From assembly GCA_903934925.1 (NCBI GenBank), contig CAIZPS010000054.1, forward strand, positions 1 to 48,362: 48,362 nt of DNA, read 5' to 3'. Numbering within the stretch: the first letter of the stretch is position 1; each line of letters opens with the position of its first letter. This document shows, piece by piece, positions 9,602 through 33,069 of the stretch. The translations under genes were made by a program, and so were the position numbers. This DNA comes from an uncultured bacterium. GTDB lineage: Bacteria; Actinomycetota; Actinomycetes; S36-B12. The notes beneath the pieces are model-generated. The model worked only from the letters and a program-made list of their open reading frames with translations. It searched no databases and was not told where the DNA came from.

Positions 9602-9636
9602 GACCCTGCCGCACCAACGAGAACCAGAGGAGAGCC

Positions 9637-10128: not shown

Positions 10129-10150
10129 CGATCACCGGAGCGGGTCGACC

Positions 10151-10480
10151 TCACGACGAGCCATGCGAAGCGAGTCGGTCGGTGTCATGCTCGAGTCCTG
10201 ATCGCGTCGCCGCTGGATAGTCGTGCTGCGGCTGCCATTCGAGGGCGTCAAATGGGCAAACATCGACGCAGATGCCGCAGTACATGCATAGACCGAAGTC
10301 GATAGTGAAGCGATCAAGCACACTCACGGTGCGTGGCCGGCGGGCACCCTCCTCGCTCACCTCCTCATGGTGACTGTCAATGGCAATGCACCACGACGGA
10401 CACTCCTGCACGCAGATCATGCACACCGTGCAGGCATCCGGGATCAACTGAATGACGCCACGCGGCTCTCGCGACGTCAC
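10151..10480 (-). CDS. NuoI-like 2x[4Fe-4S] ferredoxin subunit (orphan paralogue, about 109 aa)
   Basis: The product has CTVCMICVQECP and CMYCGICVDVCP separated by an RxxxxxxRFTIDFGxC spacer, as in NuoI/HycF-type proteins. The preferred GTG start at 10478-10480 overlaps the upstream stop (GTGA). The track start ATG 10504 is also possible. Confidence 0.75.
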   Translation of the reverse strand: MTSREPRGVIQLIPDACTVCMICVQECPSWCIAIDSHHEEVSEEGARRPRTVSVLDRFTIDFGLCMYCGICVDVCPFDALEWQPQHDYPAATRSGLEHDTDRLASHGSS

Positions 10481-10959
10481 GCCGGCTCCCGTTCGGACAT
10501 CCACTCGTCTCGCACACCCGGTGGCAGCTGCGGCCTGCGAGCGCGCCGCAAGTCATCTCCCGAGGGCGTCCCTGGCCATTCGCGCGCAACGCGTTCGGTC
10601 AGGGCGCTGGCCTTGCGCAGCGGAGGCACGCCGGATGCCGGGGCCTCACGGAGGATCAGCGGGCGCGGGTCGGGATGGCCCGTGAAGATGATCCCGAACA
10701 TCTCGGCGGTCTCCCGCTCGTGCCATGAAGCGCCGTCGAGCACCGATGACGCCGAGGGCACCGCGAGCTGATCCGCTGGAACTCGAGTCGTGAGACGGCA
10801 GCGCTGGGCAGTGTCCGGGTTGGTGAGGACAGCGACGACCTCGACCACACCGATCCGATCGACGGCCGTGATCAGGTCGAGCATCGCGAAGCCGGCCGCC
10901 CGTGCCTGGTCAAGCGCGCGCAGCCATTCCGTTAGCGGGACCTCCCGGACTTCAGTCAT
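10477..10959 (-). CDS. NuoC-like (complex I 30 kDa family) subunit, orphan paralogue, 160 aa
   Basis: The product reads MTEVREVPLTEWLRAL...SWHERETAEMFGIIFTGHPDPRPLIL, matching the NuoC signature WHERE..D.FG..F.GHPD.R.L. ATG 10957-10959 overlaps the stop of the NuoB-like gene (ATGA). The N-terminal 48 codons of the track ORF overlap the upstream gene. Confidence 0.75.
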   Translation of the reverse strand: MTEVREVPLTEWLRALDQARAAGFAMLDLITAVDRIGVVEVVAVLTNPDTAQRCRLTTRVPADQLAVPSASSVLDGASWHERETAEMFGIIFTGHPDPRPLILREAPASGVPPLRKASALTERVAREWPGTPSGDDLRRARRPQLPPGVRDEWMSEREPA

Positions 10960-11408
10960 CGGCCTGCCAGGGAGAGGAGGGCATCGCGGAGGGCCTCCGG
11001 ACACGGTGGGCATCCGGGCACGTACTGCTGCACCGCGACGATGCGGTCGACCCCGTTGATGACCGTGGGTGCGTCCCAGTAAGGGCCGCCCGTGCTCGCA
11101 CACGCACCGAAGGCCAGCACCGCGTCGACCAGGGGACGCTGACCGAGGGCCGCCTCCACGGCGGGCACGAGAGGGGTCGTGACCGTCCCGGCCACGACGA
11201 GCACCCGGAACCCGCCGCCCGGCTCGCGAACAGGCTCGCGAACAGGCTCGCGATCAGGCTCGCCGTCCGCGGGCACGAGGATTCCGGCAACCACTGCGGC
11301 ATCGACCTCGACCGCGCAGCAGGCCAAGCCCAACGCCAGAACGCGAACCTCCACGAGGGGGTCAGCGGCGAGCCGGAACTCCCGGGTCGCAAGCAGGGAG
11401 TGGAGCAT
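10956..11408 (-). CDS. NuoB-like (20 kDa / hydrogenase small-subunit-related) Fe-S subunit, orphan paralogue, 150 aa
   Basis: The product has LGLACCAVE, FGACASTGGPYW and VPGCPPCPEAL, so all four Cys positions of the N2-type [4Fe-4S] site are present. It is strongly diverged from the canonical nuoB at 32145-32699. It carries an EPDR/EPVR repeat insert. Confidence 0.75.
   Translation of the reverse strand: MLHSLLATREFRLAADPLVEVRVLALGLACCAVEVDAAVVAGILVPADGEPDREPVREPVREPGGGFRVLVVAGTVTTPLVPAVEAALGQRPLVDAVLAFGACASTGGPYWDAPTVINGVDRIVAVQQYVPGCPPCPEALRDALLSLAGR
11221..11264 (-). repeat. 12-nt in-frame tandem repeat (about 3.6 units) inside the NuoB-like gene
   Basis: Units are ggctcgcgaaca, ggctcgcgaaca, ggctcgcgatca and a partial ggctcgcc. 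They encode GEPDREPVREPVREPGG. Confidence 0.9.
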
Positions 11409-11446
11409 GCCGCCAGCGTAGTTCCGCCCTTGCCGGGTGTAGGCTG

Positions 11447-11460
11447 CTAGGACGTCCTAG
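11447..11460. promoter_or_regulatory. Perfect 14-bp palindrome CTAGGACGTCCTAG in the divergent nuoB-like/korA intergenic region (candidate operator)
   Basis: The palindrome was read directly from the sequence. It lies 39 to 52 bp from the NuoB-like start and 75 to 88 bp from the korA start. It contains two CTAG tetranucleotides in a GC-rich context. Confidence 0.4.
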
Positions 11461-11534
11461 AACCTTCTCGTGACGGCAGGCCGCCCACAACGCGAACGCC
11501 GCGCGGAGCCCCTTCACCGTCCCTAAGGAAGCCC

Positions 11535-17640: not shown

Positions 17641-19206
17641 CTACCGGACGAACACACCCGCCTGCTCGACGATGTCCAGCAGCCACTGGGGGAAGACGCC
17701 CAGGGCGATGGTCATCACCGTCGCGGCGGTGAGCGCGATCGTGGTGAATGTCGACGGAATCACGACCGAGGCGGTGTCCTCGGTGGGCTCGGAGAAATAC
17801 ATCAGGACGATCACGCGGACATAGAAGAAGGCCGCGATGATGCTGGCGATGACGCCCACAACGACGAGCCATGCCGCACCGCTGGCAATACCGGCGGAGA
17901 ACACCGCGAACTTGCCCACGAACCCGCTCGTGAGCGGGATTCCGGCGAGGGAGAGCAGAAACAGCGAGAAGACCGCAGCGATCACGGGGGACTTCTTGCC
18001 CAGACCGACCCAGGCCGAAAGGCTCGTCGCCTCACCTGACGCGTTGCGCACCATGGACACGACGGCGAAGGTGCCGATGGTCGTGAACGCGTAGGCGATC
18101 AGGTAGAAGATCGAGCTGGCCAGCCCCTCCGGAGAAGCGGCCACGACGCCGATGAGAATGAAGCCGGCCTGGGCGATCGAGGAGTAGGCCAGCATTCGCT
18201 TGATGTCAGTCTGCGTGATGGCGAGCACCGACCCGATGACCATCGTGAGACCGGCGATGATCCACAGCATGGGAGTCCAGTCCCAGCGCAGGCCGCCGAG
18301 GGACACATAGAGCAGGCGAAGCATTGCGGCGAACGCTGCGATCTTGACCGTCGCCGCCATGAACGCCGTGACGGGAGTTGGGGCCCCCTGGTAGACGTCC
18401 GGAGTCCATTGATGGAACGGGACTGCTGCGATCTTGAACAGCAGCCCGACCATGACCAGTGCGACTCCCACCGCGACCAGAGTCCCCTCGCCCGGCTTGG
18501 CCGCGAGTGTCTCGGACAGGATGACGAAGTTCACGGAGCCGCTGTAGCCGTAGAGCAGTGCGGCCCCGTAGAGGAAGAAGGCCGACGAGAACGCACCGAG
18601 GAGGAAGTACTTCAGCGCCGCCTCCTGGGAGAGCAGGCGACGGCGACGTGCCATCCCTGCGAGGAGGTAGAGCGGCAGGGACATGACCTCGAGAGCAACG
18701 AACATGAGGAGGAAGTCGTTGGCCGCAGCGAACACGAGCATGCCGGTGAGAGCGAACAGCAGGAAGGGCCAGACCTCAGTCTGGAGGAATCCGCGCTTGG
18801 TGAACTGCTGCTCGTCCTCCGAGCCGGGCAGCGCCGATGCCCGAGGAGCAAAGGCGTCTCCCAGAGGATCGACGGAACGCTCGGCCATGAGGAAGGTCGC
18901 CAGCAGCCCGACTACGAGGAGGGCGCCCCAGAGCACGAGGGTGGGTCCGTCGACAGCGATGGCCCCCTCCCCCGTGATCAGGCGAGTGCCGCGGAGGTCG
19001 ACCGTGACGACGAGTGCCGCGACGATCGCTCCGATCACCAGCACGAGTTGAGTCGGACGACGTCCACCGCGAGGGACGAAGGCCTCGACCAGGACGGAGA
19101 CCACCGCAGCGCCGAACAGGATCAGGATCGGGGCGATCGCGTAGTAGTTGACGGACGGCAGGGTGAACTGAACCTCGGCCGCCATGACCAGTGCGGGGGC
19201 GCTCAC
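17641..19206 (-). CDS. nuoN: NADH-quinone oxidoreductase subunit N
   Basis: This is a 521-aa antiporter-like membrane subunit. Its GTG start overlaps the nuoM stop (GTGA). It is the last gene in the nuoA-N order. Confidence 0.9.
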   Translation of the reverse strand: MSAPALVMAAEVQFTLPSVNYYAIAPILILFGAAVVSVLVEAFVPRGGRRPTQLVLVIGAIVAALVVTVDLRGTRLITGEGAIAVDGPTLVLWGALLVVGLLATFLMAERSVDPLGDAFAPRASALPGSEDEQQFTKRGFLQTEVWPFLLFALTGMLVFAAANDFLLMFVALEVMSLPLYLLAGMARRRRLLSQEAALKYFLLGAFSSAFFLYGAALLYGYSGSVNFVILSETLAAKPGEGTLVAVGVALVMVGLLFKIAAVPFHQWTPDVYQGAPTPVTAFMAATVKIAAFAAMLRLLYVSLGGLRWDWTPMLWIIAGLTMVIGSVLAITQTDIKRMLAYSSIAQAGFILIGVVAASPEGLASSIFYLIAYAFTTIGTFAVVSMVRNASGEATSLSAWVGLGKKSPVIAAVFSLFLLSLAGIPLTSGFVGKFAVFSAGIASGAAWLVVVGVIASIIAAFFYVRVIVLMYFSEPTEDTASVVIPSTFTTIALTAATVMTIALGVFPQWLLDIVEQAGVFVR

Positions 19207-20756
19207 TGCCCGCTCCCTTCGGAGGACGTGCCTGTGGATGAGATCGTCGGCGTGGGATCAGTCATGCCGACCGTGCTCATGACTCGATCGACGGCCGGAT
19301 TGATCACGTTGAGCAGTGGCGCCGGGAAGAAGCCCAGCACGATCGTCAGCACCGCGATGGGGACGAGCGAAGTGACCTCACGCCCACCCAGGTCACGCAT
19401 TCCCTCCAGCCCGGGCTTCAGGGGCCCGGTCATGGACTTCTGGTAGACGCGCAGCACGTAGGCCGCCGTGATCACGATTCCCACGGTGGCTACCGCGCCG
19501 ACCCACATGTATCGCTCGAAGGCCCCCAGCAGGACGAGGAACTCGCCCACGAAGGACACCATGCCCGGGAGCGCCAGGGAGGACAGCGCCGCGACGAGGA
19601 AGAAGCCTGCCAGGACGGGTGCCGCCTTGTTCACGCCGCCATAGTCGGAGAGCAGGCTCGAACCGTGGACGCGGACCATGAGGAATCCGGCCGTGAGGAA
19701 CAGCGCGGCCGTGGACAGGCCATGGGCGACCATGTAGACGACCGAACCGCTCTGCCCCTGGGTCGTGAACACGAAGATGCCCAGCGTGATGAACCCGAAG
19801 TGGGACATGGACGAGTAGGCGAAGAGGCGCTTCATGTCGTGTTGACGCAAAGCCAGCAGTGCACCGTAGAAGATCCCGATCAGCGCGAGCGCGATGACGA
19901 TCGGTGCGTAGAACTCCGACGCTGCGGGGAAGATCTCCAGGCAGTACCGGATCATGCCGAAGGTGCCCACCTTGTCGAGGACGCCGATCAGCAGTACCGA
20001 CGTTCCGGGCTTCGCCTCGGCCGCAGCATCCGGCAGCCACGTATGGAACGGCCATAGCGGAGCCTTGATGGCGAATGCCAGGAAGAAGCCGAGGAACAGC
20101 AGCTTCTGGAGATCCGGATCGATCTCCAGACCAACCAGCGCGCCGAAGTCGAACGTCCCGGTGCCGGTCACCTGGGCAGAAACGACATAGAGGCCGATCA
20201 GCGCCGCCAGCATCAGCAGGCCACCCACGAGGCTGTAGATGAGGAACTTCACGGCGGCGTATGACCTCTGCGGACCGCCGAATCGCCCGATCAGGAAGTA
20301 CGTCGGAATGAGCATGACTTCGAAGAAGACGTAGAAGAGGAAGACATCCGTGGCCGCGAAGACACCGATCATCAGCGCCTCGAGCACAAGCACCAGGGCG
20401 AAGTAGCCCTTCACCGAGCCGCGGCTGCCCTCGTCGACGTCATTCCAGCCCGCGAGAATCACGACGGGAACCAGAGTGGCCGCAAGTGCGATGAGCACCA
20501 GGCTGATTCCGTCGACACCCACCGCGTAGGAGATCCCGAAGGCAGGGATCCACGGATGTGATTCGACGAACTGGAATCGCTCGGCCGAATCCGCCGAGAA
20601 CTGCAGGGCCATCGCGACGGTCAGGGCGAGGGTTACGAGAGAGAAGGCGAAGGCGACCTGCTTGGCGAGCAGCCCCCGCCCCTTCGGCAGGAAGGCAACG
20701 AGGACGCTGCCTGCCAGCGGCACCACCATCAGGATGGTCAACCAGGGAACGTTCAC
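19203..20756 (-). CDS. nuoM: NADH-quinone oxidoreductase subunit M
   Basis: This is a 517-aa antiporter-like subunit ([21 protein letters not shown]). Its start overlaps the nuoL stop (GTGA). Confidence 0.9.
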
Positions 20757-22648
20757 GATGCCCTCACCAGAACCAGGGCGAGGACGACAATCACGGCGCC
20801 ACCCACCATCGACAAGGCGTACGTACGGACGAAGCCGGTCTGGTACCGCCGCAGGCGACCGGAGATTGCGCCCACAAGGGCGGCAAGGCCGTTCACGAGG
20901 CCATCGATTCCCTTGGCGTCGATCGACGTGGCGGCCTTCGCGGCGACGAGTGTCGGGGTCACGACAAGCACCTGGTTCACCTGATTGCCGTAAAGCTCCT
21001 CACGTGCCGCACGCGTGAGCCAGGAGCCTCGCGGCGCCTCGATCGGAATGGGTCGCCGGGCGTACATCACGTAGGCGACGATCACGCCGGCGATGACTGC
21101 GGCGAGTGAGATGCCGATGGTCGCCGCGGTCGACAGCGGCGCCTCCTTCGACTCGAAGCCCACGACTGGCTCGAGCCAGGACTCGATGTCGCCCCAGAAG
21201 AGAAGTGCCATGCCCAGGAAGGTCGAGCCGAGAGCGAGGATGATCAGCGGGATCGTCATGACCTTCGGCGATTCGTGAGGATGGACGTCGTCCTCCCACC
21301 GGGCCTTGCCCAGGAAGGTCATGATGAACATTCGGGTCATGTAGAAGCCGGTGATTCCCGCCGCGATGATGAGCAGGACACCAACGAGCACGCTCTCCTC
21401 GAAGGCCGCATGGATGAGTTCGTCCTTGGACCAGAAGCCCGAGAAGGGAGGGATACCGAGGATGGACAGCCACCCGGCAGCGAACGTGATGAAGGTGATG
21501 AACATGACTGTGCGCAATGCCCCATAGCGGCGCATGTTCACGTTGTCGTTCATGCCGTGCATGACGGATCCTGCGCCGAGGAAGAGTCCGGCCTTGAACA
21601 CACCGTGAGTCAGCAGGTGGAAGATGCCGAACACGTAGCCGATCGGCCCGAGGCCCACGGCGGCGATCATGTATCCGATCTGGCTCATGGTCGAGCCGGC
21701 CAGCGACTTCTTGATGTCGTCCTTGGCCGAACCGATGATCGCACCCATGAATACCGTGATCACACCAACGACGATCACCGCTGTGGCAGCCACTTGGGCG
21801 AGGTCGAAGATCGCATTGCTTCGCGCGATGAGATAGACGCCCGCGGTGACCATGGTCGCTGCGTGGATGAGAGCCGAGACGGGAGTCGGGCCCTCCATCG
21901 CGTCGAGAAGCCACGCCTGCAGCGGGAACTGGGCGGACTTGCCGGCCGCCGCAAGGAGAAGCAGCAGGCCGATTGCGTTCAGCGTCCCCTCGCTCGCCTG
22001 ATCAGCTGCCCCGAACACATCCTCGAAGCTGACGGATCCGAACGTGACGAACATCAGCATGATCGCCAGGCTCAGACCCACATCGCCGACACGGTTGATG
22101 ACGAAGGCCTTCTTCGCGGCAGCTGCTGCAGAGTGCTTGTACTGATAGAACCCGATCAGCAGGTAGCTCGCAAGGCCGACGCCTTCCCAGCCCACGTACA
22201 GGAGCAGGAAGTTGTTCGCAAGTACGAGGATCAACATCGCGCCCACGAACAGGTTCAAGTAGCCGAAGAACTTGCGTCGATCAGGGTCGTGGGCCATGTA
22301 CCCGAGCGAATAGATGTGGATGAGCGCGCCGACCGTGGTGATCAGCAGGACGAAGACCATGGACAGCTGATCGAGCTGGAAGGCCATGTCGGCCTGGAAG
22401 CCCCCCACGGAGACCCAGGTGAACAGGTTCTGGTCGAAGGTGCGCTCCTCCGGAGGGTTCTGCAGCATCGCCAGCAGCATCAGCCAGCCGAGGACGGCGG
22501 AGGCACAGACGGTGAGCACGCCCAGGTACGGGCCCCAGGAGTTCGTGCGCCGGCCACCGAAGAGCAGCACGACAGCACCGGCCAGGGGCAGGGCGATCAG
22601 CAGCCAGATGAGGGAGAACACCCCCTCAGCGGGCATCAACTCGGTCAC
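20753..22648 (-). CDS. nuoL: NADH-quinone oxidoreductase subunit L
   Basis: The 631-aa product has [15 protein letters not shown] and [37 protein letters not shown], plus a long C-terminal lateral-helix region. Confidence 0.92.
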
Positions 22649-22686
22649 AGCGTGGTCCTATCCATCGTCGGAGTCTGTGGGCTGGT

Positions 22687-22986
22687 CTAGTACTTGAGCA
22701 GGTTCGGTTCGTCGATCGAGGCTGATCGTCGGGTGCGGAAGATCGTGACGATGATCGCCAGGCCCACCACGACCTCGGCCGCCGCCACCACCATGACGAA
22801 GAAGGCGACGGTCTGACCGTCGAGATTGCCATTCATGCGTGCGAACGCAACGAACGCGAGGTTCGCGGCATTGAGCATCAGCTCCACCGACATGAACACC
22901 ACGATGGCATTGCGTCGCACGAGCACACCGATAGCTCCGATGCTGAACAGCACAGCCGAGAGGATGATGTAGTTCGACGGGTTCAT
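22687..22986 (-). CDS. nuoK: NADH-quinone oxidoreductase subunit K
   Basis: The 99-aa product has three helices and the [11 protein letters not shown] motif. Confidence 0.92.
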
Positions 22987-23804
22987 TCGCTCTTCCCCTC
23001 CCCCGGCAGCGCGGTCTCGCCCTCGCTGATCTGACGAACCTCATCGATGTCGACGCGATCGAGGGGACGCTCGTCGCCGCGTGCCCGAACCGGTGCCGGC
23101 ACGCTGATCTCACTGATGCCACCATCCGGCAGCAGCGCTGGCGTGTCGACGGCGTTGTGTCGCGCGAAGACGCCCGGGTTCGGGAGGTTGCCTGCGTGCC
23201 CTGGGCCCCGGACCCGGGCGATCGAGAGATCGCGTTGGGTCAAGCGCGCCTTCCAGCGCTCGCGGTGCGCGAGCACCATGGCGCCCATTGCTGCCGTGAT
23301 CAGCAATGCGGAAGTCAGCTCGAACACCAGCAGGTACTGGGTGAAGATCAGGTTGGCAATGCCCTGGACGTTGCCGCCGTGCTCCTCGTTCGCGCTGGCC
23401 AGGCCGACCGTCCGGGACTCCGTCAGGGCGTTGCCGATGCCCCAGATGATGAGGATGGCCATGCCCAGGGCAAGGAGCAGGGCGGCCACTCGCTGGCCCT
23501 TGATGGTCTCAATGAGCGAATCCGAGGAGTCGACGCCGACGACCATGAGCACGAAGAGGAAGAGCATCATGACGGCGCCGGTGTAGACGATGATCTGCAC
23601 CATGCCCAGGAACGGGGCGGAGTTCGCCACGTACATGATTGCCAGGTTGATCATGGTCAGGGCGATCCAGAGGGCACTGTGGACCGCCTTGCGAGAGAGG
23701 ACCATGCCGAGCGCTCCGGCAACCGCCAGAACGGCGGTCACCCAGAAGACGATCTGCTCGCCAGTGCTCGACTCCGTAGCCGCGTCAGCCAGCATCACGA
23801 TCAT
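22983..23804 (-). CDS. nuoJ: NADH-quinone oxidoreductase subunit J (with long hydrophilic C-terminal tail)
   Basis: The 273-aa product has an N-terminal ND6-like membrane domain ([24 protein letters not shown]). Its position lies between nuoI and nuoK. Confidence 0.88.
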
Positions 23805-24364
23805 GCGGACTCCTCCACCACGACCACACCAGTGATGGCGCCCGACTGCTCAGGAGAGGACCCCGTGACCTTGTTGGCGTAGTAGTCGCGCTCCGTGGTG
23901 CCCGGGTACATCGCGTGCGGAGGCTCCACCATGCCCGGCAGCAGTGGAGCGAGGAGATCCTGCTTCTCGAAGATCAGCTTCGCCCTGGAGTCATCGGCCA
24001 GTTCGTACTCGTTCGTCATGGTCAGGGCCCGAGTGGGGCACGCCTCGATGCACAGGCCGCAGAGGATGCAGCGCAGGTAGTTGATCTGGTACACGCGGCC
24101 GTAGCGCTCGCCGGGCGAGTAGCGCTCCTCGTCGGAGTTGTCGGCGCCTTCAACCAGAATCGCATCCGCAGGGCAGGCCCATGCGCAGAGCTCACAGCCC
24201 ACGCATTTCTCGAGACCGTCGGCCCACCGATTGAGCTGATGACGGCCGTGGAAGCGCGGCTTCGTCGGGACCTTCTGCTCGGGATACTGCTCTGTGACGA
24301 CCTTCTTGAACATCGTCAGGAAGGTGACACCGAATCCCCGTACGGCCTGGGGAACCTCAGCCAT
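23801..24364 (-). CDS. nuoI: NADH-quinone oxidoreductase subunit I
   Basis: The product has [12 protein letters not shown] and [12 protein letters not shown]. The start is set at [15 protein letters not shown] (ATG 24362-24364), 2 nt after the nuoH stop. The track start 24388 would overlap nuoH. Confidence 0.9.
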
Positions 24365-25718
24365 GGGTGCTCTCCTCATCGGGGTCATGGGTCGGATCCT
24401 CGACGGAACGCGACGTCGTCACGGGCTCCTGCACAATCGTGTTGCCCTGGGCAGCCGCGCGGCGCGAAGTGTAGGTGAAGGACTGCCCCGGCATCGGTGG
24501 CACGGGGAAGCCCGCCTCCATCGGGTCGAACGGGGCAGCAGCGGCGGCGGCCTCGGCGTCCTCGCGCGCACGGTTTCGACGATCAGCGCGCGTCTGGATC
24601 ACCCACGAGGCGAGGATCAGCAGCACGATGACGACTGCACCCGAGATGAGGATCTCCGTCGTCGTGAGACTGACGTCGTCGCGGAGGACGCGAGCGAGTG
24701 ACACGATCATGATCCACGCGATCGATACCGGTATCAGAACCTTCCAGCCGAACCTCATGAACTGGTCGTAGCGCATCCGCGGCAGGGTGCCCCGGAGCCA
24801 GATGAAGATGAAGATGAAGATCTGCACCTTGATCAGCCACCAGAGCATCGGCCACCAGCCTTGGTTGGCTCCCTCCCACAGCGACAAGGGCCATGGGGCG
24901 AGGTAACCGCCGAGGAACAGGGTCGTGGCCATCGCCGAGACAGTGACCATGTTGATGTACTCAGCGAGGAAGAACAGTGCGAACTTCAGCGACGAGTACT
25001 CCGTGTGGAATCCGCCGACGAGCTCACCTTCGGCCTCGGGGAGGTCGAAGGGGGCGCGGTTGGTCTCGCCGACCATGGCCGTGCAGTAGATGAGGAAGGA
25101 CGGCAGCAGGATGACCGCGAACCAGATCGGCTCCTGTGCGATCACGATCTGCGAGGTCGACATCGACCCGGCGAACAGGAAGACGGCGACGAACGACAGT
25201 CCCATCGCGATCTCGTAGGAGATCATCTGGGCGGATGAACGGATGCCGCCAAGCAGCGGGTATGTCGACCCGGAGGCCCAGCCACCCAGCACGATCCCGT
25301 AGATGCCGATGGATGCGATGGCCAGCACGTACAGCACGGAGACCGGGAAGTCCGTGAGCTGCAGCGGCGTCACCACGCCGAAGATGGAGACCTCGGGGCC
25401 GAACGGAATGACGGCGAAGGCGAGGAACGCCATGGTGGCGGAGATCACCGGCGCCAGCCAGTAGACGGCCAGATGGGCCGACTTGGGGATGATCTCCTCC
25501 TTCAGGGCGAGCTTGATGCCGTCCATCAGGGACTGCAGCAGGCCCTGCGGCCCGACCCTGTTGGGACCGATTCGGTTCTGCATCCGGGACACCACGCGCC
25601 GCTCCCACCAGATGGTGAACAGGGTGAGCAGGACGAGGATGACGAAGATGGCGAGCACCTTGAGGATCACCAGCCACCACGGATCAGTGCCGAACAGGCC
25701 GAAGGTCGAATCCGTCAT
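24357..25718 (-). CDS. nuoH: NADH-quinone oxidoreductase subunit H (453 aa, extended C-terminus)
   Basis: The product reads [20 protein letters not shown]...[30 protein letters not shown] 25716-25718 overlaps the nuoG stop (ATGA). Confidence 0.9.
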
Positions 25719-28099
25719 GATGCGCCTCCTGCCGAGAGTCGCACCGCTGAACCGGGCACGACGCCGAGATCTGCATGGATGTGGCATCCGGGCGAGTTCA
25801 TCGGCAGCCACACGACTCCGTCGATGACTTCACCGGGCTCCACGGGCAGCGTGACCGACCCTGCGGGACCGCTGACGGTGACGGTGTCGCCCACGGCTGC
25901 CGCCGCCTGGGCCGACATCACCGCGACGGTCGGCCGGGCCGTGGCCGCCAGATGCGGCTCACCGTCCTGCATGAGGCCTGAGTCCAGGAGCTGGCGCCAG
26001 GACGCGAGGACGACTCCGTCCGGCACCCGTCCCGCAGGCACCGCGGGCGCCTCGAGCCGGGCACCGGTCCAGGGGCCCAGGGCACCCATCTCCGCGCGGA
26101 TGGCGCGGACGTCGGCCTGCTGGGTGAAGCCGAGCTCCTCCGCGATCATCGCCAGCACGCGGGCATCGCCCATGGTCAGCGCATCGCGGAACACCTGCGC
26201 GAAGGGGCGAGGGCGCCCCTCCCAGTTCAGGAAGGTGCCGGCCTTCTCCGTCACGACGGCTACGGGGAGGACGACATCGGCGCGCTCGGTCACGGCCGAG
26301 TGGTGGCTCTCGAGCGACACGACGAACGGCGCCGCGTCAAGGGCGGCCAGCGCGAGCTCGGCATCAGGAAAGTCGCCTGGCTCCACTCCCGCGACGAGGA
26401 GGGCACGAAGCGTGCCGTCCTGTGCGGCCTGCAGCAACTCCACGCCCGAGCGACCGCTGGTCGCGGGAAGGTCGGACGGGGTGACTCCCCAGGCAGCCGC
26501 CACCTGCACACGAGCAGCGGGGTCCTCGATCGGGCGCCCACCCGGCAGAAGCCCGGACAGGGCACCTGCATCGAGGGCTCCTCTCTCCCCCGCCCTGCGG
26601 GGGACCCATGCCAGACTCGCACCCGTCGCGCGGGACAGCTCGGCAGCTGCTGACAGCGCTCCAGCGGATCCGGCAGCACGCTCACCCACCAGGATCACCG
26701 AGCCGGGAGTGGCAAGGAGCGCGCGCACGTCGCCAGAAAGGCCGCGGAGCACGCTGGCCTCGTCACCGGGCTTGGCCGCGATCAGCGAGCCATTGACCTT
26801 GGCCAGTCCGGGCGAAGCCACTGCACCGACCGAGCGCACGTCCGTGCCGCGGCGAGCGGCCTTGCGCAGTCGCAGTTGAAGGATCGGGGATTCGTCCTCC
26901 GGGTCGAGCGCGATGAGCAGGACGAAAGGCGCGGATTCGAGAGCGTCATAGGTCGCTGACACCGGGGATCCGGCCACCACGGCCGACAGGAACTGCGTCT
27001 CCTCCGCCGAGGTCTCACGAACCCGGAAGTCGATGTCGTCGCTGGCCAGCACCGTCCGCGTGAACCGGGCATACGCGTAGGCGTCCTCGACCGTGAGCCG
27101 ACCACCGACAAGCACACCCGCACTGCCGCGAGCGGCACGCAGGCCCTGGGCTGCGACGCTGATCGCCTCAGGCCACGACGCCACCCGAAGTTGGCCGTTC
27201 TCCCGGACAAGCGGAGACTCGATGCGACCGTGCGTCTGATACGCAAAGGCAAAACGCCCCTTGTCGCAGTTCCACTCCTCATTGACGTCGGGGTCGTCCC
27301 AGGCAAGTCGGCGGGTCACGACTCCACGGCGGTAGTCCGTGCGCAGCGAGCAGCCCGAGGCACAGTGCTCGCACGTCGTCGGCACGGATACCAGGTCGAA
27401 CGGTCGCGAGCGGAACCGGTAGGACGCGCTGGTAAGCGCCCCCACAGGGCAGATCTGGACCGTGTTCCCGGAGTAGTAGGACTCGAACGGAGAGTCGTCA
27501 GCAGTGCCCACCATCTGCTTGGCACCGCGCTGGAGCAGCTCCAGTGATGGATCGCCGGCAATCTGCTCGGCAAAACGCGTGCACCGTGCGCAAGAAACGC
27601 AGCGCTCGCGATCAAGCAGGATCTGCGCACTGACGTTGACCGGCTTCTCGAATTCCCGCTTCTCCCCGTCGAATCGCGACTCCGGGCGACCCACGGACAT
27701 CGCCTGGTTCTGCAGAGGGCACTCGCCGCCCTTGTCGCACACCGGGCAGTCGAGTGGGTGGTTGAGGAGCAGGAACTCCATGACCCCCTCCTGCGCCAGC
27801 CGTGCGACCTCGGACGCGTACTGAGTCTTGACGGTCATGCCTTCGCTGAGCACTTGGGCGCAGGCGGGCTGTGGCTTCGGCATGCCCTCGACCTCAATGA
27901 GGCAGGCGCGGCAGGCGGCCACGGGATCGAGCAGCGGATGGTCGCAGAACCTCGGAACCTCGATGCCAAGCTGCTCGGCAGCACGGATGACGAGGGTGCC
28001 CTTGGGCACGCGCATCTCGACTCCGTCGATGACCACGCTGATCTGATCGGTGGCCATCTCGACGTCTGAGCCGGGCCCACTGTTGCTGGTGACGGTCAT
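25715..28099 (-). CDS. nuoG: NADH-quinone oxidoreductase subunit G
   Basis: The 794-aa product has N-terminal 2Fe-2S and 4Fe-4S motifs ([48 protein letters not shown]), followed by a molybdopterin-oxidoreductase-like domain. Confidence 0.92.
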
Positions 28100-29400
28100 C
28101 GCGCAGCCGCTCCCGTGAAGACGTAGGACGCCGCCGGGTCGTACTGCTCGTCGACCGGCGTGGTGGTCGCCGCGACGAACTCGTCACGGAAGTACTTCAT
28201 GGCGGCGGGGTACGGGGTTGCCGCTGCGTCACCAAGCGCGCAGAAGGATCGACCCGCGATCTGGCCGCAGAGATCGGCGAGGGTCTCCATCTCCCGGTCG
28301 GTGCCGTGGCCGTGCTCGAAGCGCTCGAGAGTCTCGGTGATGAAGTAGGTGCCCTCGCGGCAGGGCGTGCACTTGCCGCAGGACTCGTGCTTGTAGAACT
28401 CCAGCCACCTCGTGACCGCCTTCACGACGCTCACGGTGTCGTTGAAGATCATCGGGGTACCCGTGCCCAGCATCGTGCCGGCCTCGGCCATGGCCTCGTA
28501 TGTCATGGGCACATCGAGGTGCTCCGCGGTGAGCATCGGCACCGACGACCCCCCAGGCAGCCAGAACTTCACGTCTCGACCGTCGATCATGCCGCCTGCG
28601 TACTCGAGCAGTTCGCGCATCGTGATGCCGAGCGGGGCCTCGTAGATGCCCGGGCGGTTGACGTGGCCGGACACCGCGAAGACCTTGAAGCCCGGGGACT
28701 TCTCTGTTCCGAACTGACGAAACCAATCGACGCCGCGCCCCACGATGTACGGGATGTTGCAGATCGTCTCAACGTTGTTGATCACCGTTGGCGAGGAGTA
28801 CAGGCCGGCCACCGCCGGGAAGGGGGGCTTGAGACGCGGCTGACCGCGGAAGCCCTCAAGGGAGTCGAGCAGGGCTGTCTCCTCGCCGCAGATGTAGGCA
28901 CCTGCGCCGGAGTGCACCACGATCTCAAGGTCGAATCCGCTGCCTTGGATGTCCCGCCCGATCAGGCCTGCCTCGCGAGCCTCGCGGACCGCGTGCGCGA
29001 CGCGCCGGATGGCCTCCGGCACCTCGCCGCGAATATAGATGAACGCGTGATTGGCACGGATCGCGTAGGACGTGATGATCACGCCCTCCACGAGTGCATG
29101 CGGATTCGCGATCATGATGGGAATGTCCTTGCAGGCACCCGGCTCCGACTCATCGGCGTTGACGACGAGGTAGTGGGCCTTGCCGTCGTTCTGGGGCACG
29201 AAGCTCCACTTCAGGCCCGTGGGGAATCCCGCACCACCCCGACCGCGCAGGCCGGAGTCCTTGACCGTCGCGATGATCGCATCGGGCTCCTGCCCCAGGG
29301 CACTGCTCAGTGCCGAATAGCCACCGTGACGCCGGTAGCCGGCCAGGGTGAAGAGCTCGGGATCGTCCCAGTGCTCAGTGATGACCGGGGTCAACGGCAT
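28096..29400 (-). CDS. nuoF: NADH-quinone oxidoreductase subunit F
   Basis: The 434-aa product has GLRGRGGAGFPTGLKW, GAGAYICGEETALLDSLEG and the N3 cluster motif ESCGKCTPCREG. Confidence 0.93.
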   Translation of the reverse strand: MPLTPVITEHWDDPELFTLAGYRRHGGYSALSSALGQEPDAIIATVKDSGLRGRGGAGFPTGLKWSFVPQNDGKAHYLVVNADESEPGACKDIPIMIANPHALVEGVIITSYAIRANHAFIYIRGEVPEAIRRVAHAVREAREAGLIGRDIQGSGFDLEIVVHSGAGAYICGEETALLDSLEGFRGQPRLKPPFPAVAGLYSSPTVINNVETICNIPYIVGRGVDWFRQFGTEKSPGFKVFAVSGHVNRPGIYEAPLGITMRELLEYAGGMIDGRDVKFWLPGGSSVPMLTAEHLDVPMTYEAMAEAGTMLGTGTPMIFNDTVSVVKAVTRWLEFYKHESCGKCTPCREGTYFITETLERFEHGHGTDREMETLADLCGQIAGRSFCALGDAAATPYPAAMKYFRDEFVAATTTPVDEQYDPAASYVFTGAAAR

Positions 29401-29403
29401 GAC

Positions 29404-30063
29404 TCAGCCCTCCTGTCCTGTGGCAACTGCAGGTGCGGACATGCCAAGCTCCTTGGCCAGACGCAGGCCGACCAGCATCTTGTCGTCGACGGGCGTGCCC
29501 TCCGCGGCAAGACCGTCCTCGGGGAATGCGAGCGACTTCTCAGTCGCTCGGAAGTCGCGGATGACCGGACCCCGTGTCGAGAACACCGTCTCACCGCGCT
29601 GCAGGCGATCAACGACATCGACGGCCGAGGTGGGAGTGACGTCGTCCATGAATTCCCAGTCGACGGTCATGACCGGCGCATGAGTACAGGCCGCTTGGCA
29701 TTCGATCCGCTCGAGCCAGAACTCGCCGTCAGCCGTGGGCTGATCGTGCCCCACGCCCAAGCGCTCGCTGAGGGCGTCGTAGACCGCATCGCCCCCGAGC
29801 AGCCCGCACAGGGTGTTGACGCACACCCCGATGTGGTGCTTGCCGACCGGGCGGCGCTTGTACATCGTGTAGAAGGATGCAACGGCAGTCGCCTCCGCGG
29901 AGCTGACCCCCGCCATCTCGGCGCACAGGGCGATGCCTTCGGGGGTGACCTCCCCCTCGAGGCTCTGGACCAGGTGCAGCATCGGCATGAGGGCCGAGCG
30001 CGGCCGCGGGTACCGGGCGACCAGCTCCTGGAGCTCGTCGCGGGTGCTCTGGCTGATGGGCAT
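29404..30063 (-). CDS. nuoE: NADH-quinone oxidoreductase subunit E
   Basis: From MPISQSTRDELQELVARYPRPRSALMPMLHLVQ the product has the 2Fe-2S Cys set (GVCVNTLC...IECQAAC). ATG is at 30061-30063 with AAGGAAG upstream. The track ORF extends further upstream into nuoD. Confidence 0.88.
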   Translation of the reverse strand: MPISQSTRDELQELVARYPRPRSALMPMLHLVQSLEGEVTPEGIALCAEMAGVSSAEATAVASFYTMYKRRPVGKHHIGVCVNTLCGLLGGDAVYDALSERLGVGHDQPTADGEFWLERIECQAACTHAPVMTVDWEFMDDVTPTSAVDVVDRLQRGETVFSTRGPVIRDFRATEKSLAFPEDGLAAEGTPVDDKMLVGLRLAKELGMSAPAVATGQEG

Positions 30064-30082
30064 GTCGTCTCTTCCTTGTCGC

Positions 30083-31444
30083 CTAGCGGTCCACGCCGCC
30101 CATGACCGGGTCGATGCTCGCGACCGCGGCGATGACATCGGAGATCATGCTGCCTTCGCACATTGCGGCCACGGATTGGAGGTTGGTGAAGGACGGGTCG
30201 CGGAAGTGAACGCGATAGGGCCGAGTGCCTCCGGAGCTGACGATGTGGCAGCCGAGCTCGCCCTTGGGCGACTCGACGGCCGCATAGACCTGCCCGGCCG
30301 GAACACGGAAGCCCTCGGTGACCAGCTTGAAGTGATGGATCAGCGCCTCCATCGACTCCGACATGATCTCCTTGATGTGCTCAGGCGAATTGCCCTGGCC
30401 GTCGCTGCCGATCGACAACTGGGCGGGCCACGCGATCTTCTTGTCCTCGATCATCACCGGGCCGGGAGCGAGCTTGTCAAGAGCCTGCTCGACGATCCGC
30501 AGGGACTGCTCCATCTCCTCGATGCGGATCAGGAAGCGCCCGTAGACATCGGCCGTCGTCTTGGTGATGACGTCGAACTCGTAGTTCTCGTAGCCGCAGT
30601 ACGGCTGACTCTTGCGCAGATCGTGAGGAAGCCCCGTCGCGCGCAGCACCGGCCCTGTGATCCCCAGAGCCATGCAGCCTGCGAGATCGAGGTAGCCGAT
30701 GTCGACCGTGCGCCCCATCCAGATCGAGTTGTCGACGAGGAGGTCAGCGGTGTCCTTGAGGCGCTTGCGCAGAAGCGGAATCGTCTCGCGGATCTTCTGT
30801 GCACCGTCGACTGGGAGGTCCTGGGCGACTCCACCCGGGCGGATGTAGGCGCTGTTCATGCGCAGTCCGGAGACCATCTCGAAGATGTCGAGGACGAGCT
30901 CGCGCTCCCGGAATCCGAACTCCATGGCCGTCAGGGCCCCAAGCTCCATACCTCCAGTTGCGAGGGCGACGAGATGGGACGAGATCCGGTTGAGCTCCAT
31001 CATCATGACTCGGATGACGTTGGCGCGCTCAGGGATCTGGTCAGTGACGCCCAGTGCCTTCTCGACCGCCAGGCAGTACGCCGCTTCGTTGTACATCGGC
31101 GTCAGGTAGTCCATGCGGGTGACGAACGTGACGCCCTGCACCCACGAGCGGAACTCCATGTTCTTCTCGATGCCGGTATGCAGGTAGCCGATGCCTGCCC
31201 TGGCCTCGGTTACGGTCTCACCGTCAATCTCGAGGATGAGGCGAAGTACGCCGTGCGTAGAAGGATGCTGTGGTCCCATGTTGACGACGATGCGGTCGTG
31301 CTCGCCCTCAGGAGCGCCTGCGATGGTGTCCCAGTCACCACCCGAGACGGTGTAGATGCGGCCGTCGGTCGTGTCGTAGGACCCCGCGTACGAGTCAGCT
31401 TCGTCCGACCCGGCGCTGGTGAAGGTGACGTTGTCGGTCGACAT
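30083..31444 (-). CDS. nuoD: NADH-quinone oxidoreductase subunit D
   Basis: From MSTDNVTF the product has [18 protein letters not shown] and a C-terminal VMGGVDR. Its start overlaps the nuoC stop (TGATG). Confidence 0.92.
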
Positions 31445-32148
31445 CAGTTGTACGACCTCCGCTGGTCCGGGGGCGGGATGGTGCCGCCCTTGTACTCGAC
31501 GGGGATGCCGCCGAGGGGGTAGTCCTTGCGCTGCGGGTGGCCGGGCCAGTCGTCCGGCATCATGATGCGGGTGAGAGCGGGGTGGCCGTCGAAGACGATG
31601 CCGAAGAAGTCCCAGGTCTCGCGTTCGTGCCAATCGCACGTGGGGTAGACGGCGTACAGCGACGGGATCACTGCGTCACCCTCAGGCACCGACACCTCGA
31701 GGCGGATGCGCCGATTGTGGGTGATCGACAAGAAGTGGTAGACGGCGTGCAACTCTCGGCCGGTCTCTCCCGGGTAGTGCACACCATTCACGCCGAGGCA
31801 CATCTCGAATCGCAGTCCAGGCTCGTCGCGGAGGACGGTTGCGAAGGCAATGAGGTGCTCCCGGCGCACGTGGTACGTGATCTCATCGCGGTAGATGACC
31901 ACCTTCTCGATGGCATCGGTTGCCGGCAGCCCCGCCGCCTGAAGGGAAAGCTCGAGTTCGTCGGAGATCTCGTCGAACCATCCGCCGAAAGGACGTCGAG
32001 CCGGGGCAGGCATGACGATCGGCTCCACGAGGCCACCGAACCCGCTGGTGTCGCCGCCGGCGGATGTGCCGAAGGAGCCGTGGCGCACACCGATGATCTC
32101 GAGCTCCTCGATCCCCTGCGGGACGATCGCGCGTTCAGCTTCGGTCAT
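31444..32148 (-). CDS. nuoC: NADH-quinone oxidoreductase subunit C
   Basis: The 234-aa product starts at MTEAERAIV and has [30 protein letters not shown]. Its start overlaps the nuoB stop (ATGA). Confidence 0.9.
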
Positions 32149-32699
32149 CGCATGAGGCCCTTCATCTCCAGGGTGGTGGGAGCGGAAAGGGCCATGGCCT
32201 CCAACTCCACGATCTCCTCGCGGCGATGGGCACCGATCTTGGTGTCCTGAATCTTGTCGTGCAGCTTGAGGATGGCGTCGAAGAGCATCTCCGGCCTGGG
32301 CGGGCAGCCCGGAAGGTAGATGTCCACGGGGATGATGTGGTCGACGCCCTGGACGATCGCGTAGTTGTTGAACATGCCGCCGCTCGAGGCGCACACGCCC
32401 ATGGCGATGACCCACTTCGGATTGGGCATCTGGTCGTAGATCTGACGCACGACGGGCGCCATCTTCTGGCTGACCCTCCCGGCGACGATCATGAGGTCGG
32501 CCTGCCGCGGCGAGGCGCGGAACACCTCCATGCCGTAGCGGGCGATGTCGAAGCGGGGCCCACCCGCCGCCATCATCTCGATAGCGCAGCAGGCGAGGCC
32601 GAAGGTGGCGGGCCACAGTGAGCCCTTGCGCGCATATCCGGCGAACTTCTCGACCGTCGTGAGGAGAACTCCTGACGGCAGGGATTCTTCAAGGCCCAT
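32145..32699 (-). CDS. nuoB: NADH-quinone oxidoreductase subunit B
   Basis: The 184-aa product has [27 protein letters not shown] and LPGCPPRPE. Confidence 0.93.
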
Positions 32700-32709
32700 G
32701 GCTGGCTCC

Positions 32710-33069
32710 CTAGTCCCACTCGAGGCCGCGGCGCCGCCAGACGTAGGCGTAGACCACGAGGACGGTGATGATGAACAGGAACATCTCGATCAGGCCGAAG
32801 AGGGCGAGCTGGTCGAAGGCGACCGCCCACGGGTACAAGAACACGATCTCGATGTCGAAGATGATGAAGAGCATCGCGGTGAGGTAGTACTTGACCGGGA
32901 ATCGACCGCCCCCGACCGGCTGCGGAGTGGGCTCTACGCCGCACTCGTACGCGTCGTACTTGGCCCGGTTGTAGCGCTTGGGCCCGGTGAAGGTGGCCGC
33001 CGCAACGGAGAACACCGCGAAGCCGAAGGCGAGTAGGCCGAGGACGAGGATCGGGATGTAGACGTTCAC
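32710..33069 (-). CDS. nuoA: NADH-quinone oxidoreductase subunit A
   Basis: The 119-aa product has three helices and YECG..P.....RF.VKYYL.A.LF..FD.E..FLYPW. It has a GTG start with GAGGAG upstream. Confidence 0.92.

Follow-up and report, generated by a model that had tools for sequence, protein, structure and literature searches.

What can the Fe-S subunits of a complex I-like enzyme do once NuoD, NuoH and the membrane arm are missing? The question is raised by a three-gene operon (hereafter the trio) in the window analysed here, a stretch of 48,362 nucleotides from an uncultured actinobacterium, in which NuoB-, NuoC- and NuoI-like proteins are encoded side by side. A preliminary description had treated this operon as an orphan and had offered three readings of it: a soluble relay for the neighbouring 2-oxoglutarate:ferredoxin oxidoreductase KorAB, a module docking on the membrane arm of the canonical complex I, or a remnant of a second nuo-like cluster.

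Architecture of the operon and its three proteins

All three genes lie on the minus strand, and their extents and assignments follow from open reading frames and Pfam matches. The B-like gene (10956..11408, ATG start) encodes a nuoB2-derived subunit of 150 residues for one N2-type [4Fe-4S] cluster, the C-like gene (10477..10959, ATG start) a nuoC2-derived cofactor-less subunit of 160 residues, and the I-like gene (10151..10480, GTG start) a nuoI2-derived 2x[4Fe-4S] subunit of 109 residues. The 4-nt overlaps described earlier were confirmed from the ORF coordinates: ATGA at 10959-10956 places the C start over the B stop, and GTGA at 10480-10477 places the I-like start over the C stop. The bounds of the operon also agree with the preliminary description, with yajQ (DUF520 by Pfam; 9637-10128, plus strand) as the convergent downstream neighbour and korA (11535-13400, plus strand) on the divergent side, followed by korB (13408-14454, plus strand); both kor genes are identified by the POR/POR_N/TPP_enzyme_C annotation of their orthologues. 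The 126-bp region between the B-like and korA starts (11409..11534, from the ORF ends) is presumably where the promoters lie. A promoter and terminator scan of positions 9500-11700 found no sigma-70-like consensus, and the Rfam search returned tRNAs only.

A complete canonical nuoA-N cluster (nuo1; minus strand, about 17641..33051) lies about 6 kb from the trio, as had been noted, and no other NuoD or NuoH gene occurs in the window. The claim that no NuoD, NuoH or membrane partner stands beside the operon holds well past this contig, since neither the window nor any of 84 related loci has a NuoD- or NuoH-like ORF adjoining the trio. Homologues of the antiporter-like NuoL, NuoM and NuoN are likewise absent next to it. 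Nor is a conserved fourth gene apparent: in two related loci (L001 and L002), the small ORFs between korA and the B-like gene match no Pfam family and are not conserved, and the ORF that follows the I-like gene is TPR-like in L001, without Pfam match in L002, and conserved in neither. A tblastn search of the 126-bp gap found no remnant of nuoA2. Upstream of a basal B-like homologue (P0138), an ORF considered as a NuoA candidate proved to be TMEM164-like.

In the Pfam searches that the preliminary description had proposed, each protein exceeds the gathering cut-off of its family, with 60.2 bits against 27 for Oxidored_q6 (PF01058) on the B-like protein, 91.8 against 22.5 for Complex1_30kDa (PF00329) on the C-like protein and 50.2 against 21.1 for Fer4 on the I-like protein. 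Among NCBIfam models, NuoB, NuoC and NuoI match best, and all scores fall far under the curated cut-offs: 81.8 against 116 (NF005012) and 80.0 against 142.7 (TIGR01957) for the B-like, 68.8 against 122.45 (TIGR01961) for the C-like and 63.8 against 113.05 (TIGR01971, NuoI/TYKY) for the I-like protein. The latter also scores 37.8 bits with the PorD_KorD model TIGR02179, whose cut-off is 60.05.

A motif check found a complete set of ligands, 12 cysteines in all, for three [4Fe-4S] clusters. The four N2-type cysteines reported for the B-like protein are present in LGLACCAVE, GACASTGG and GCPPCPE, and all four (LACC with its tandem CC, GAC, GCPP) are kept in 119/119 full-length homologues. Both CxxCxxCxxxCP motifs reported for the I-like protein were found as well, and their cysteines (C17, C20, C23, C27 and C65, C68, C71, C75) are invariant across 34 sequences. 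The short second protein is NuoC-like, as proposed, by its Pfam score and by the motif WHERETAEMFG (W-x-ERE-x-x-EMFG), which is invariant among the aligned homologues.

The structural models agree with these assignments. The AlphaFold2 (AF2) model of the B-like protein (pLDDT 89) has its best Foldseek matches in PSST/NuoB of complex I, and that of the C-like protein (pLDDT 87), for which database homologues were used, superposes on NuoC/30-kDa chains over 124 columns at about 2 Å rmsd, with an extended C-terminal tail of lower confidence. In the B-like model, confidence is low at about residues 47-66, which correspond to a replaced loop. Here the canonical FRASPRQ loop of NuoB gives way to EPDR/EPVR/EPVR, encoded by a 12-nt tandem repeat of 3.6 copies (TRF; 11221..11263, minus strand), so that the reported exchange of the PRFD..R.G..FRASPRQ segment for an EPDR/EPVR repeat is borne out. 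Close homologues differ in the length and sequence of this loop, which is of a variable acidic and proline-containing type. The B-like protein also lacks the C-terminal helix common to NuoB1 and NuoB2. The I-like protein has only 16 residues before its first cysteine, where the window's NuoI has about 58 and NuoI2 about 70 or more; it is missing the N-terminal ~50 residues as well as the C-terminal extension of NuoI/NuoI2.

In PSST, R77 and R81 of the loop bind glutamates of ND1, D160 of the 49-kDa subunit and quinone (PMC10212512). The quinone-site loop of the B-like protein is degenerate and both of these arginines are lost. Together with the missing N-terminal part of NuoI, this disfavours the docking of the trio on the canonical membrane arm. 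A related explanation, that the trio takes the place of NuoB, NuoC and NuoI on canonical complex I under some condition, is improbable for the same reasons: the B-like protein lacks the loop whose arginine equivalents touch NuoH and quinone, as well as its C-terminal helix, and the I-like protein lacks the N-terminal segment. Such an exchange would find support in the position of nuo1, which has the same orientation as the trio and lies within 10 kb of it in most related loci, and in the speculation of Streptomyces authors that nuo2 subunits might be incorporated differentially (PMC3765725). The proximity of nuo1, however, is ancestral synteny common to full nuo2 loci, and one trio (L069) has neither nuo1 nor kor within 10 kb.

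Derivation from the nuo2 cluster

The second nuo cluster of Streptomyces, nuo2, is known as nuoA2, B2, H2-N2 and is uncharacterised; a nuoD2 has been reported at a separate genomic site (PMC3765725, PMC8388888). In the full nuo2 clusters compared here, the gene order is A2-B2-C2-H2-I2-J2-K2-L2-M2-N2, and D, E, F or G are never part of the cluster. The absence of NuoD in cis, presented earlier as a special trait of the trio, is accordingly shared with every full nuo2 cluster.

The I-like and C-like proteins carry features specific to nuo2, namely a DSH.E insert and VLDRF.IDF in the former and a WPG..RR..PPGV..W tail in the latter; the complete tail, PLRK...WPG...RR..PPGV..W, is common to C2 of full nuo2 clusters. 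In agreement with this, I2 of Pedococcus matches the I-like protein with 114 bits (54% identity) compared to 63 bits (31%) for canonical nuoI, and its C2 matches the C-like protein with 72 bits compared to 49 bits for the window's canonical NuoC. The earlier view that no recent duplication of nuo produced the trio is also supported. The B-like protein has the family signature GGPYWDAPTV and falls inside the nuoB2-type GGPYWD clade of a neighbour-joining tree without support values, on long branches relative to intact nuoB2. Since B2 of Pedococcus is closer overall to the window's canonical NuoB (162 bits) than to the B-like protein (85 bits), the placement of the latter relies on the signature motif, on this unsupported tree and on the other two genes.

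The chromosomal position points to the same origin. In L090, the order is EamA-korB-korA...A2..N2-M48-Usp followed by a convergent yajQ, and in L085 korBA diverges from A2-B2-C2-H2..I2-J2-K2-L2. When these two loci and L089 are compared with the window, L069, L087, L091 and L093, nuo2 and the trio prove to share one slot, with korBA on one side and M48/yajQ, towards rpmG, on the other. The second nuo-like cluster that the preliminary description placed between the kor and rpmG loci thus exists in other actinobacteria as nuo2, and its suggestion of a reduced form of such a cluster is corroborated by both the signatures and the slot. The convergent yajQ, found downstream in 69/74 genomes, delimits what used to be the nuo2 slot at its far end, and in L069 the trio is followed by M48 and M1 peptidases, the same genes that follow nuoN2 in Pedococcus. 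A recent descent of L069 from a Pedococcus-like nuo2 was considered and dropped, as the 82% identity of its M48 peptidase is also seen with unrelated genomes.

No remnants of A2, H2 or J2-N2 were found when Pedococcus queries were run by tblastn on the window and all trio loci; the only hits were to canonical nuo1. With seven membrane genes missing, the trio is a reduced derivative and not a nuo2 cluster. Taken together, the comparisons of sequence and gene order show that the trio represents B2, C2 and I2 of actinobacterial nuo2, and that all seven membrane-subunit genes (A2, H2, J2, K2, L2, M2 and N2) were deleted in situ in its lineage.

The retention of the C-like subunit bears on what the trio may assemble with. 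NuoC carries no cofactor and has no known role other than holding NuoD, so a kept C-like protein hints at a surviving NuoD-type partner. The trio might then join a NuoD-type subunit encoded elsewhere (nuoD2-like or canonical NuoD) in a soluble four-subunit enzyme resembling the Q-module, whose B/D interface would form a catalytic or substrate pocket. The invariant W-x-ERE-x-x-EMFG motif and the conserved extended tail, which looks disordered without a partner, would fit such an assembly, and a distant partner is conceivable given that nuoD is missing in cis from full nuo2 clusters too, that a separate nuoD2 is reported for Streptomyces and that the window itself holds canonical nuoD. We nevertheless consider this unlikely. 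In the PSST loop, the arginine partner of D160 of the 49-kDa subunit is lost, no NuoD homologue occurs within +/-10 kb of the trio at 84 loci, and neither B-D nor C-D fusions are seen among relatives, where only A2-B2 and B2-C2 fusions occur. Of the 282 C-like homologues found, the 120 listed are single-domain throughout, and the long B-like representatives are A2-B2 or B2-C2 fusions or over-called ORFs.

Conservation of the trio and its link to KorAB

The same B-C-I operon is present in at least 120 species-level genomes of the genome scan. Its hosts are all uncultured Actinomycetota, many labelled Nanopelagicales, from freshwater and soil. The orphan status claimed earlier thus stands in so far as no D, H or membrane gene is found in cis, but not in the sense of a unique locus. 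The survey of gene neighbourhoods proposed for B-C-I trios without D or H gave the same arrangement in 80/80 related loci. Literature searches found no orphan nuoB-C-I trio, and no such module in papers on Nanopelagicales or acI. The genes are at present labelled NADH-quinone oxidoreductase subunit B or C, and complex I calls in MAG-based reconstructions can consequently be inflated or confused.

At every one of the 78 loci parsed from species-level genomes, all three ORFs are intact, with single-frame HSPs and no frameshifts; copies that seemed disrupted (L040, L005, L047 and others) reflect the choice of start codon. Coupling is likewise retained, with B-C junctions of -4 (53/78), -1 (11/78) or 0 (9/78) and C-I junctions of -4 (63/78) or -8 (11/78). 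The dN/dS ratios suggested as a check (NG86) were restricted to close pairs with neighbour-gene controls, as dS is saturated over all pairs, and amount to 0.18, 0.20 and 0.31 for B, C and I, similar to the 0.15-0.28 of the neighbours korA, korB and yajQ. Purifying selection acts on the intact trio in at least 74 of the species-level genomes parsed and, more broadly, in over 100 species-level lineages. The long B-like branches, the NCBIfam scores that all lie under cut-off and the hypervariable repeat loop could be read as signs of a non-functional nuo2 relic whose decay is pending. The intact frames, the invariance of the 12 cysteine ligands, the conserved translational coupling and the dN/dS values make such a relic very improbable, as does the persistence of the trio in genomes that have deleted the adjacent korAB, and the remnant proposed earlier is not a decaying one.

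The linkage to korAB that the preliminary description had proposed to examine is conserved in part and is not obligatory. An adjacent, divergent korA is found in 53/68 informative genomes, while in 15/68 the trio is intact without korAB at the locus; it is lower-GC, Nanopelagicales-labelled genomes that keep the trio after deletion of the neighbouring korAB. Moreover, nuo2 of Pedococcus does not lie beside kor, and the adjacency may for this reason be inherited synteny, which it appears largely to be, and not functional coupling. A trio that outlasts the loss of korAB must have, or have acquired, another partner.

A proposed soluble relay and its relation to known systems

We propose that the trio derives from nuo2 by loss of the membrane genes and was kept as a soluble three-cluster electron relay with KorAB as favoured donor, a reading to which we assign a probability of roughly 55%. 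The three products would probably form a soluble heterotrimer of about 46 kDa in which three [4Fe-4S] clusters make up a chain, the I-like protein contributing two and the B-like protein one of N2 type; the C-like protein would serve as a structural clamp. Without the two PSST-loop arginines, the NuoI N terminus and the C-terminal NuoB helix, the trio is expected to have neither a quinone pocket nor a seat on NuoH; this would make a ferredoxin-like electron relay the most likely function. Given that the three Fe-S module genes are kept in more than 100 uncultured species, a small soluble electron-transfer protein probably still works in these organisms.

The choice of donor is the weakest step, being suggested by synteny. 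KorAB, the divergent neighbour, has two subunits and no ferredoxin domain of its own, and two-subunit OFORs are described as having no such domain (PMC5020499). For the mycobacterial KOR (M. tuberculosis), the physiological acceptor was left unidentified (PMC2773412). A soluble relay for the adjacent KorAB, as first suggested, is plausible. The broader idea is tentative: a free-standing, NuoD-less Fe-S heterotrimer acting as electron carrier could be the long-missing physiological acceptor of the 'anaerobic-type' KorAB of actinobacteria or could serve another low-potential enzyme. The conserved divergence of korBA with nuo2 or the trio provides a testable candidate for the reoxidation of actinobacterial 2-oxoglutarate:ferredoxin oxidoreductase.

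Among known systems, the small subunits of group 4 [NiFe] hydrogenases, Mbx and MBS (HycG, MbhJ, MbsJ) share the flavodoxin-like fold and the proximal [4Fe-4S] cluster with the B-like protein. They are associated with a large subunit and a membrane anchor that the trio lacks, and they match clearly worse, with 71.5 (HycG), 70.6 (MbhJ) and 65.4 bits (MbsJ) compared to about 108 bits for PSST/NuoB; these profile scores rule out a group 4 hydrogenase or Mbx origin, and no large subunit lies nearby. The PorD/KorD delta subunit and free dicluster ferredoxins resemble the I-like protein, a small protein of 2x[4Fe-4S] type whose neighbouring KorAB has no ferredoxin domain and for which it could act as the immediate electron acceptor. 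In contrast to them, the I-like protein is derived from NuoI, is in every case translated together with partners of NuoB and NuoC type and persists without korAB.

With the N-module-less enzymes, i.e. cyanobacterial NDH-1, Fpo and Campylobacter complex I, the trio has in common the absence of NuoE, NuoF and NuoG and, presumably, the entry of electrons at the NuoI-type subunit. Their donors are ferredoxin, flavodoxin or F420H2, and the adjacent low-potential KorAB fits that logic. These enzymes keep NuoD, NuoH and a proton-pumping arm and reduce quinone or methanophenazine, whereas the trio has none of these features.

The closest relative is nuo2 itself (sco4599-4608 region of Streptomyces), with which the trio shares GGPYWD in B, the I and C signatures, the slot between korBA and M48/yajQ and the lack of D, E, F and G in cis. 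It differs by the loss of the seven membrane genes, by the PRQ loop and C-terminal helix missing from its B protein and by an I protein that is shorter by about 50 residues at the N terminus and has no C-terminal extension. The trio draws attention to nuo2 as a cluster of 10 genes that is common in actinomycetes and has no NuoD in cis and no known function. Extended to the full clusters, the tentative idea of a free-standing carrier would make nuo2 in Streptomyces and its relatives an enzyme that is driven by KorAB or ferredoxin and works with no canonical quinone pocket.

The Q-module of complex I (NuoB/PSST, NuoC/30 kDa, NuoD/49 kDa, NuoI/TYKY) provides the best PDB matches of the trio proteins in both sequence and structure, and has the same folds, N2-type tandem cysteines and ligands for two ferredoxin-type clusters. 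The trio departs from it in lacking NuoD, the quinone-site arginines and the NuoH-contact segments, and in scoring under the NCBIfam cut-offs. Accounts of the modular evolution of complex I usually describe accretion. In the present case, a complex-I-like enzyme has been reduced to a probably soluble B-C-I core that was then conserved in more than 100 species-level lineages, which suggests that the Fe-S part of the Q-module can exist without NuoD, NuoH and the membrane arm.

A coupled trio of complex I-like genes

Three head-to-tail ORFs on the minus strand of the window encode proteins of the NuoB type (B-like, 10956-11408, 150 aa, ATG start), the NuoC type (C-like, 10477-10959, 160 aa, ATG start) and the NuoI type (I-like, 10151-10480, 109 aa, GTG start). 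They are joined by stop/start overlaps at ATGA (10959-10956) and GTGA (10480-10477). The trio is flanked by the convergent yajQ (9637-10128) and, across a 126 bp gap, by the divergent korA/korB (11535-14454), which encode the two-subunit 2-oxoacid:ferredoxin oxidoreductase (OFOR) KorAB; a complete canonical nuoA-N set (nuo1) occupies the trio's strand at about 17.6-33.1 kb. Just past yajQ, positions 7553-9601 encode a 682-aa OYE-like FMN/Pyr_redox_2 flavoprotein of 2,4-dienoyl-CoA-reductase-like architecture, kept in higher-GC relatives and not in lower-GC ones. Since long spurious ORFs are expected at 66% GC, the 863-aa minus-strand ORF antisense to this gene (6899-9490) was treated as non-coding. 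A tRNA-Pro(cgg) called by ARAGORN inside korB (14206-14275) has no match to the Rfam tRNA model and is probably a false positive.

Pfam assigns B-like to Oxidored_q6 (60.2 bits), C-like to Complex1_30kDa (91.8 bits) and I-like to a Fer4 dicluster family, all above the gathering score. The top NCBIfam models are NuoB, NuoC and NuoI, with every score far under the curated cut-off, and the proteins are therefore divergent family members. In profile searches against the PDB, B-like matched PSST/NuoB at about 108 bits, compared to 65-71 bits for group-4 hydrogenase or Mbx small subunits; C-like matched NuoC/30-kDa chains, and I-like matched repetitive polyferredoxins first and TYKY/NuoI chains next. 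These searches place the three families with complex I subunits, and the AlphaFold models of B-like and C-like agree. The B-like model (pLDDT 89) has PSST/NuoB as its top Foldseek matches, and the C-like model (pLDDT 87), confident in its N-terminal domain and less so along an extended tail, matches 30-kDa/NuoC at about 2 Å over 124 columns. The ligands of cluster N2 are present in B-like as the tandem-cysteine LACC, GAC and GCPP, C-like carries WHERETAEMFG, and I-like contains two CxxCxxCxxxCP motifs. The preliminary description, made from the sequence alone, was accurate in every detail of ORFs, overlaps, motifs, loop replacement and neighbours, and its assignment to the NuoB, NuoC and NuoI families is borne out by these searches.

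Conservation across uncultured Actinomycetota

A protein search with B-like gave 2047 matches, of which the top 120 are without exception short proteins (82-208 aa, 45-99% identity); the four cysteines are kept in 119 of the 119 full-length proteins among them. The family has a signature of its own, GGPYWDAP(T/S)V (GGMFNNYA in canonical NuoB), replaces FRASPRQ by a variable acidic/proline loop, and is without the C-terminal helix. Scanning one genome per GTDB species for this signature identified 120 genomes, all uncultured Actinomycetota MAGs, many of them labelled Candidatus Nanopelagicales (including one acI and one acSTL). At the best 80 of these 120, tblastn with the window proteins found B, C and I together in the same order (80/80), and no NuoD or NuoH homologue beside them. 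The earlier view of an orphan operon thus holds at the 80 kept loci, but with 120 species-level genomes carrying the signature it is not a one-off.

Among 78 parsed loci, the B-C junction is -4 in 53, -1 in 11 and 0 in 9, and the C-I junction is -4 in 63 and -8 in 11. All eight cysteines of I-like are invariant, bringing the invariant ligands of the trio to 12, as is the ERE motif of C-like. Each gene is covered by a single in-frame HSP, the apparent anomalies being artefacts of start-codon choice. As dS was saturated over all pairs, omega was computed by NG86 for close pairs only (dS 0.05-0.8), giving 0.18, 0.20 and 0.31 for B, C and I, near the controls yajQ (0.15), korB (0.20), korA (0.18) and EamA (0.28). 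Given the invariant residues, the conserved couplings and the control-like omega, the operon is under ordinary purifying selection. A dead relic, the decay scenario raised beforehand, is contradicted by these data and is extremely improbable.

Relationship to the nuo2 cluster

The decisive evidence on the origin of the trio came from an exhaustive HMM search covering 1.8 billion representatives. The search revealed that GGPYWD marks a wider NuoB clade with three groups: (a) proteins 200-445 aa long that carry GGPYWDSY[SC]V and whose loop is near-canonical (one form being ..SPRYDMMRLGVIPFPASPRQAD), (b) short proteins in which GGPYWDSY[AS]V goes with a degenerate loop, and (c) the B-like family of the window. 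Group (a) genes lie within 10-gene clusters, A2-B2-C2-H2-I2-J2-K2-L2-M2-N2, that have no D, E, F or G, as seen in the related locus L085, in Pedococcus dokdonensis (L089) and in L090, from a 6.65-Mb genome. Proteins closely related to group (a) are encoded by cultured Angustibacter, Knoellia, Barrientosiimonas, Yimella and Flexivirga; that of Flexivirga bears the name 'subunit B 2'. These clusters are nuo2, the second complex I-like cluster described in Streptomyces, where nuoA2, B2 and H2-N2 behave as one operon in expression and nuoD2 lies elsewhere (PMC3765725, PMC8388888). The preliminary description was right in assigning to Streptomyces a second, partial nuo-like cluster at the equivalent position.

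nuo2 and the trio have matching flanks. In L090 the order is EamA-korB-korA ... A2..N2-M48-Usp and then a convergent yajQ; nuoA2 is divergent from korBA in L085; and in L069, an odd trio locus, the trio is followed by M48 and M1 peptidases, the same as after nuoN2 in Pedococcus. Group (b) loci, wherever looked up, are korBA<>B-C-I><yajQ trios too. In alignments, I-like carries the nuo2-specific insert DSH.E... as well as VLDRF.IDF, and C-like the nuo2-specific tail PLRK..WPG..RR..PPGV..W. Pedococcus I2 scores 114 bits against I-like and 63 against canonical NuoI, and C2 72 against C-like and 49 against canonical NuoC. B2 is the exception (162 bits to canonical NuoB, 85 to B-like), being nearer canonical NuoB overall because B-like is fast-evolving. 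In a neighbour-joining tree, which has no support values and may be subject to long-branch attraction, all degenerate-loop B-likes form one long-branched clade beside intact nuoB2 clades. No A2, H2 or J2-N2 fragments were found near any trio. From the shared signatures, flanks and alignments we conclude that the trio is what is left of nuo2, B2-C2-I2, once all seven membrane genes had been lost in situ; one of the initial hypotheses, a reduced remnant of such a cluster, is thereby correct.

Two further features of nuo2 were observed. In L085 (12338-16697) some 5 kb of unrelated genes (ABC_tran/AAA-like, DUF4143 and, on the opposite strand, an F420H2_quin_red gene) separate nuoH2 from nuoI2 within the full cluster; this split may be a step in cluster break-up. 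The nuo2-type representatives P0150, P0147 and P0235 are predicted as A2-B2 or B2-C2 fusions; these could be real, or missed stop/start junctions at 4-nt overlaps.

Lost segments and possible function

The FRASPRQ segment of canonical NuoB is replaced in B-like by EPDR/EPVR/EPVR, encoded by 3.6 copies of a 12-nt tandem repeat, GGCTCGCGAACA (11221-11263). This loop differs in length and sequence even in an 89%-identical homologue (P0002, EPDPESVHEPECEPECEPDREP), and no other part of B-like is poorly modelled. The cysteine following GCPP in GCPPCPE (11001-11021) is not conserved, being R in most homologues and S/N/G/A/H/T in some, and is therefore unlikely to be a cluster ligand. In complex I, the PSST loop with R77 and R81 lines the quinone cavity, where these arginines pair with ND1/NuoH glutamates, D160 of the 49-kDa subunit and the quinone head-group (PMC10212512). 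Compared to NuoB1 and NuoB2, B-like is missing the loop bearing the equivalents of R77 and R81 and a C-terminal helix of about 35 aa or more. I-like has 16 residues before its first cysteine, against about 58 in the window's NuoI and about 70 or more in NuoI2, and is devoid of the C-terminal extensions of both. In Thermus, the structure has the N-terminal part of Nqo9 at the interface with the membrane domain. With this loop, helix and these ends missing, the trio retains the electron-carrying parts and has shed those that form a quinone site or attach to the membrane arm. Full-length NuoB2 (L085 10001-10681; P0144-P0193) carries FAPGPRQ or FPASPRQ, the PSST R77 equivalent being already gone, which suggests a quinone site altered or absent in nuo2 itself and is consistent with nuo2 clusters having no nuoD in cis.

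The loss of interface elements, together with the L069 trio having no nuo1 within 10 kb, disfavours the earlier suggestion of alternative peripheral subunits docking on canonical complex I, which we consider improbable. A NuoD-type partner encoded elsewhere is somewhat less unlikely: the trio keeps a NuoC-type subunit that has no cofactor and, when modelled alone, a disordered-looking tail, which argues that there is still something for it to clamp, and Streptomyces has a separate nuoD2. We favour a soluble B-C-I heterotrimer of about 46 kDa, in which N6a/N6b-type clusters on I and an N2-type cluster on B would form a three-cluster wire serving as a ferredoxin-like relay.

KorAB is the favoured, albeit tentative, electron donor. 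It is an OFOR of the two-subunit type, which lacks the ferredoxin domain (PMC5020499), the physiological acceptor of the mycobacterial KOR was not identified (PMC2773412), and 53 of 68 informative species-level genomes have korAB divergently adjacent to the trio. The proposed korAB linkage fails in the other fifteen, mostly of 51-54% GC, where korBA is deleted at the locus and the trio is intact with all its cysteines. Relative to full nuo2, kor is divergently adjacent in L085, about 6 kb away in L090 and not adjacent in Pedococcus. Given the kor-less loci and Pedococcus, the adjacency may be inherited synteny. Trio loci with korBA missing upstream include L043, L045, L059-L061, L065, L066, L068, L070, L073, L076, L083 and L084, mostly of 51-54% GC and Nanopelagicales-labelled, with the trio placed right behind EamA or about 1-2 kb behind nuoN.

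The trio exemplifies a complex I module persisting without NuoD or a membrane arm, points toward the function of nuo2, provides a testable lead for the electron acceptor of actinobacterial KOR, and bears on how complex I is called when MAGs are annotated. Database names for its proteins are simply NADH-quinone oxidoreductase subunit B or C, and our literature searches did not find a free-standing B-C-I derivative of nuo2 described. nuo2 itself is known from Streptomyces annotation and transcriptomics, and the trio is a reduced form of it.
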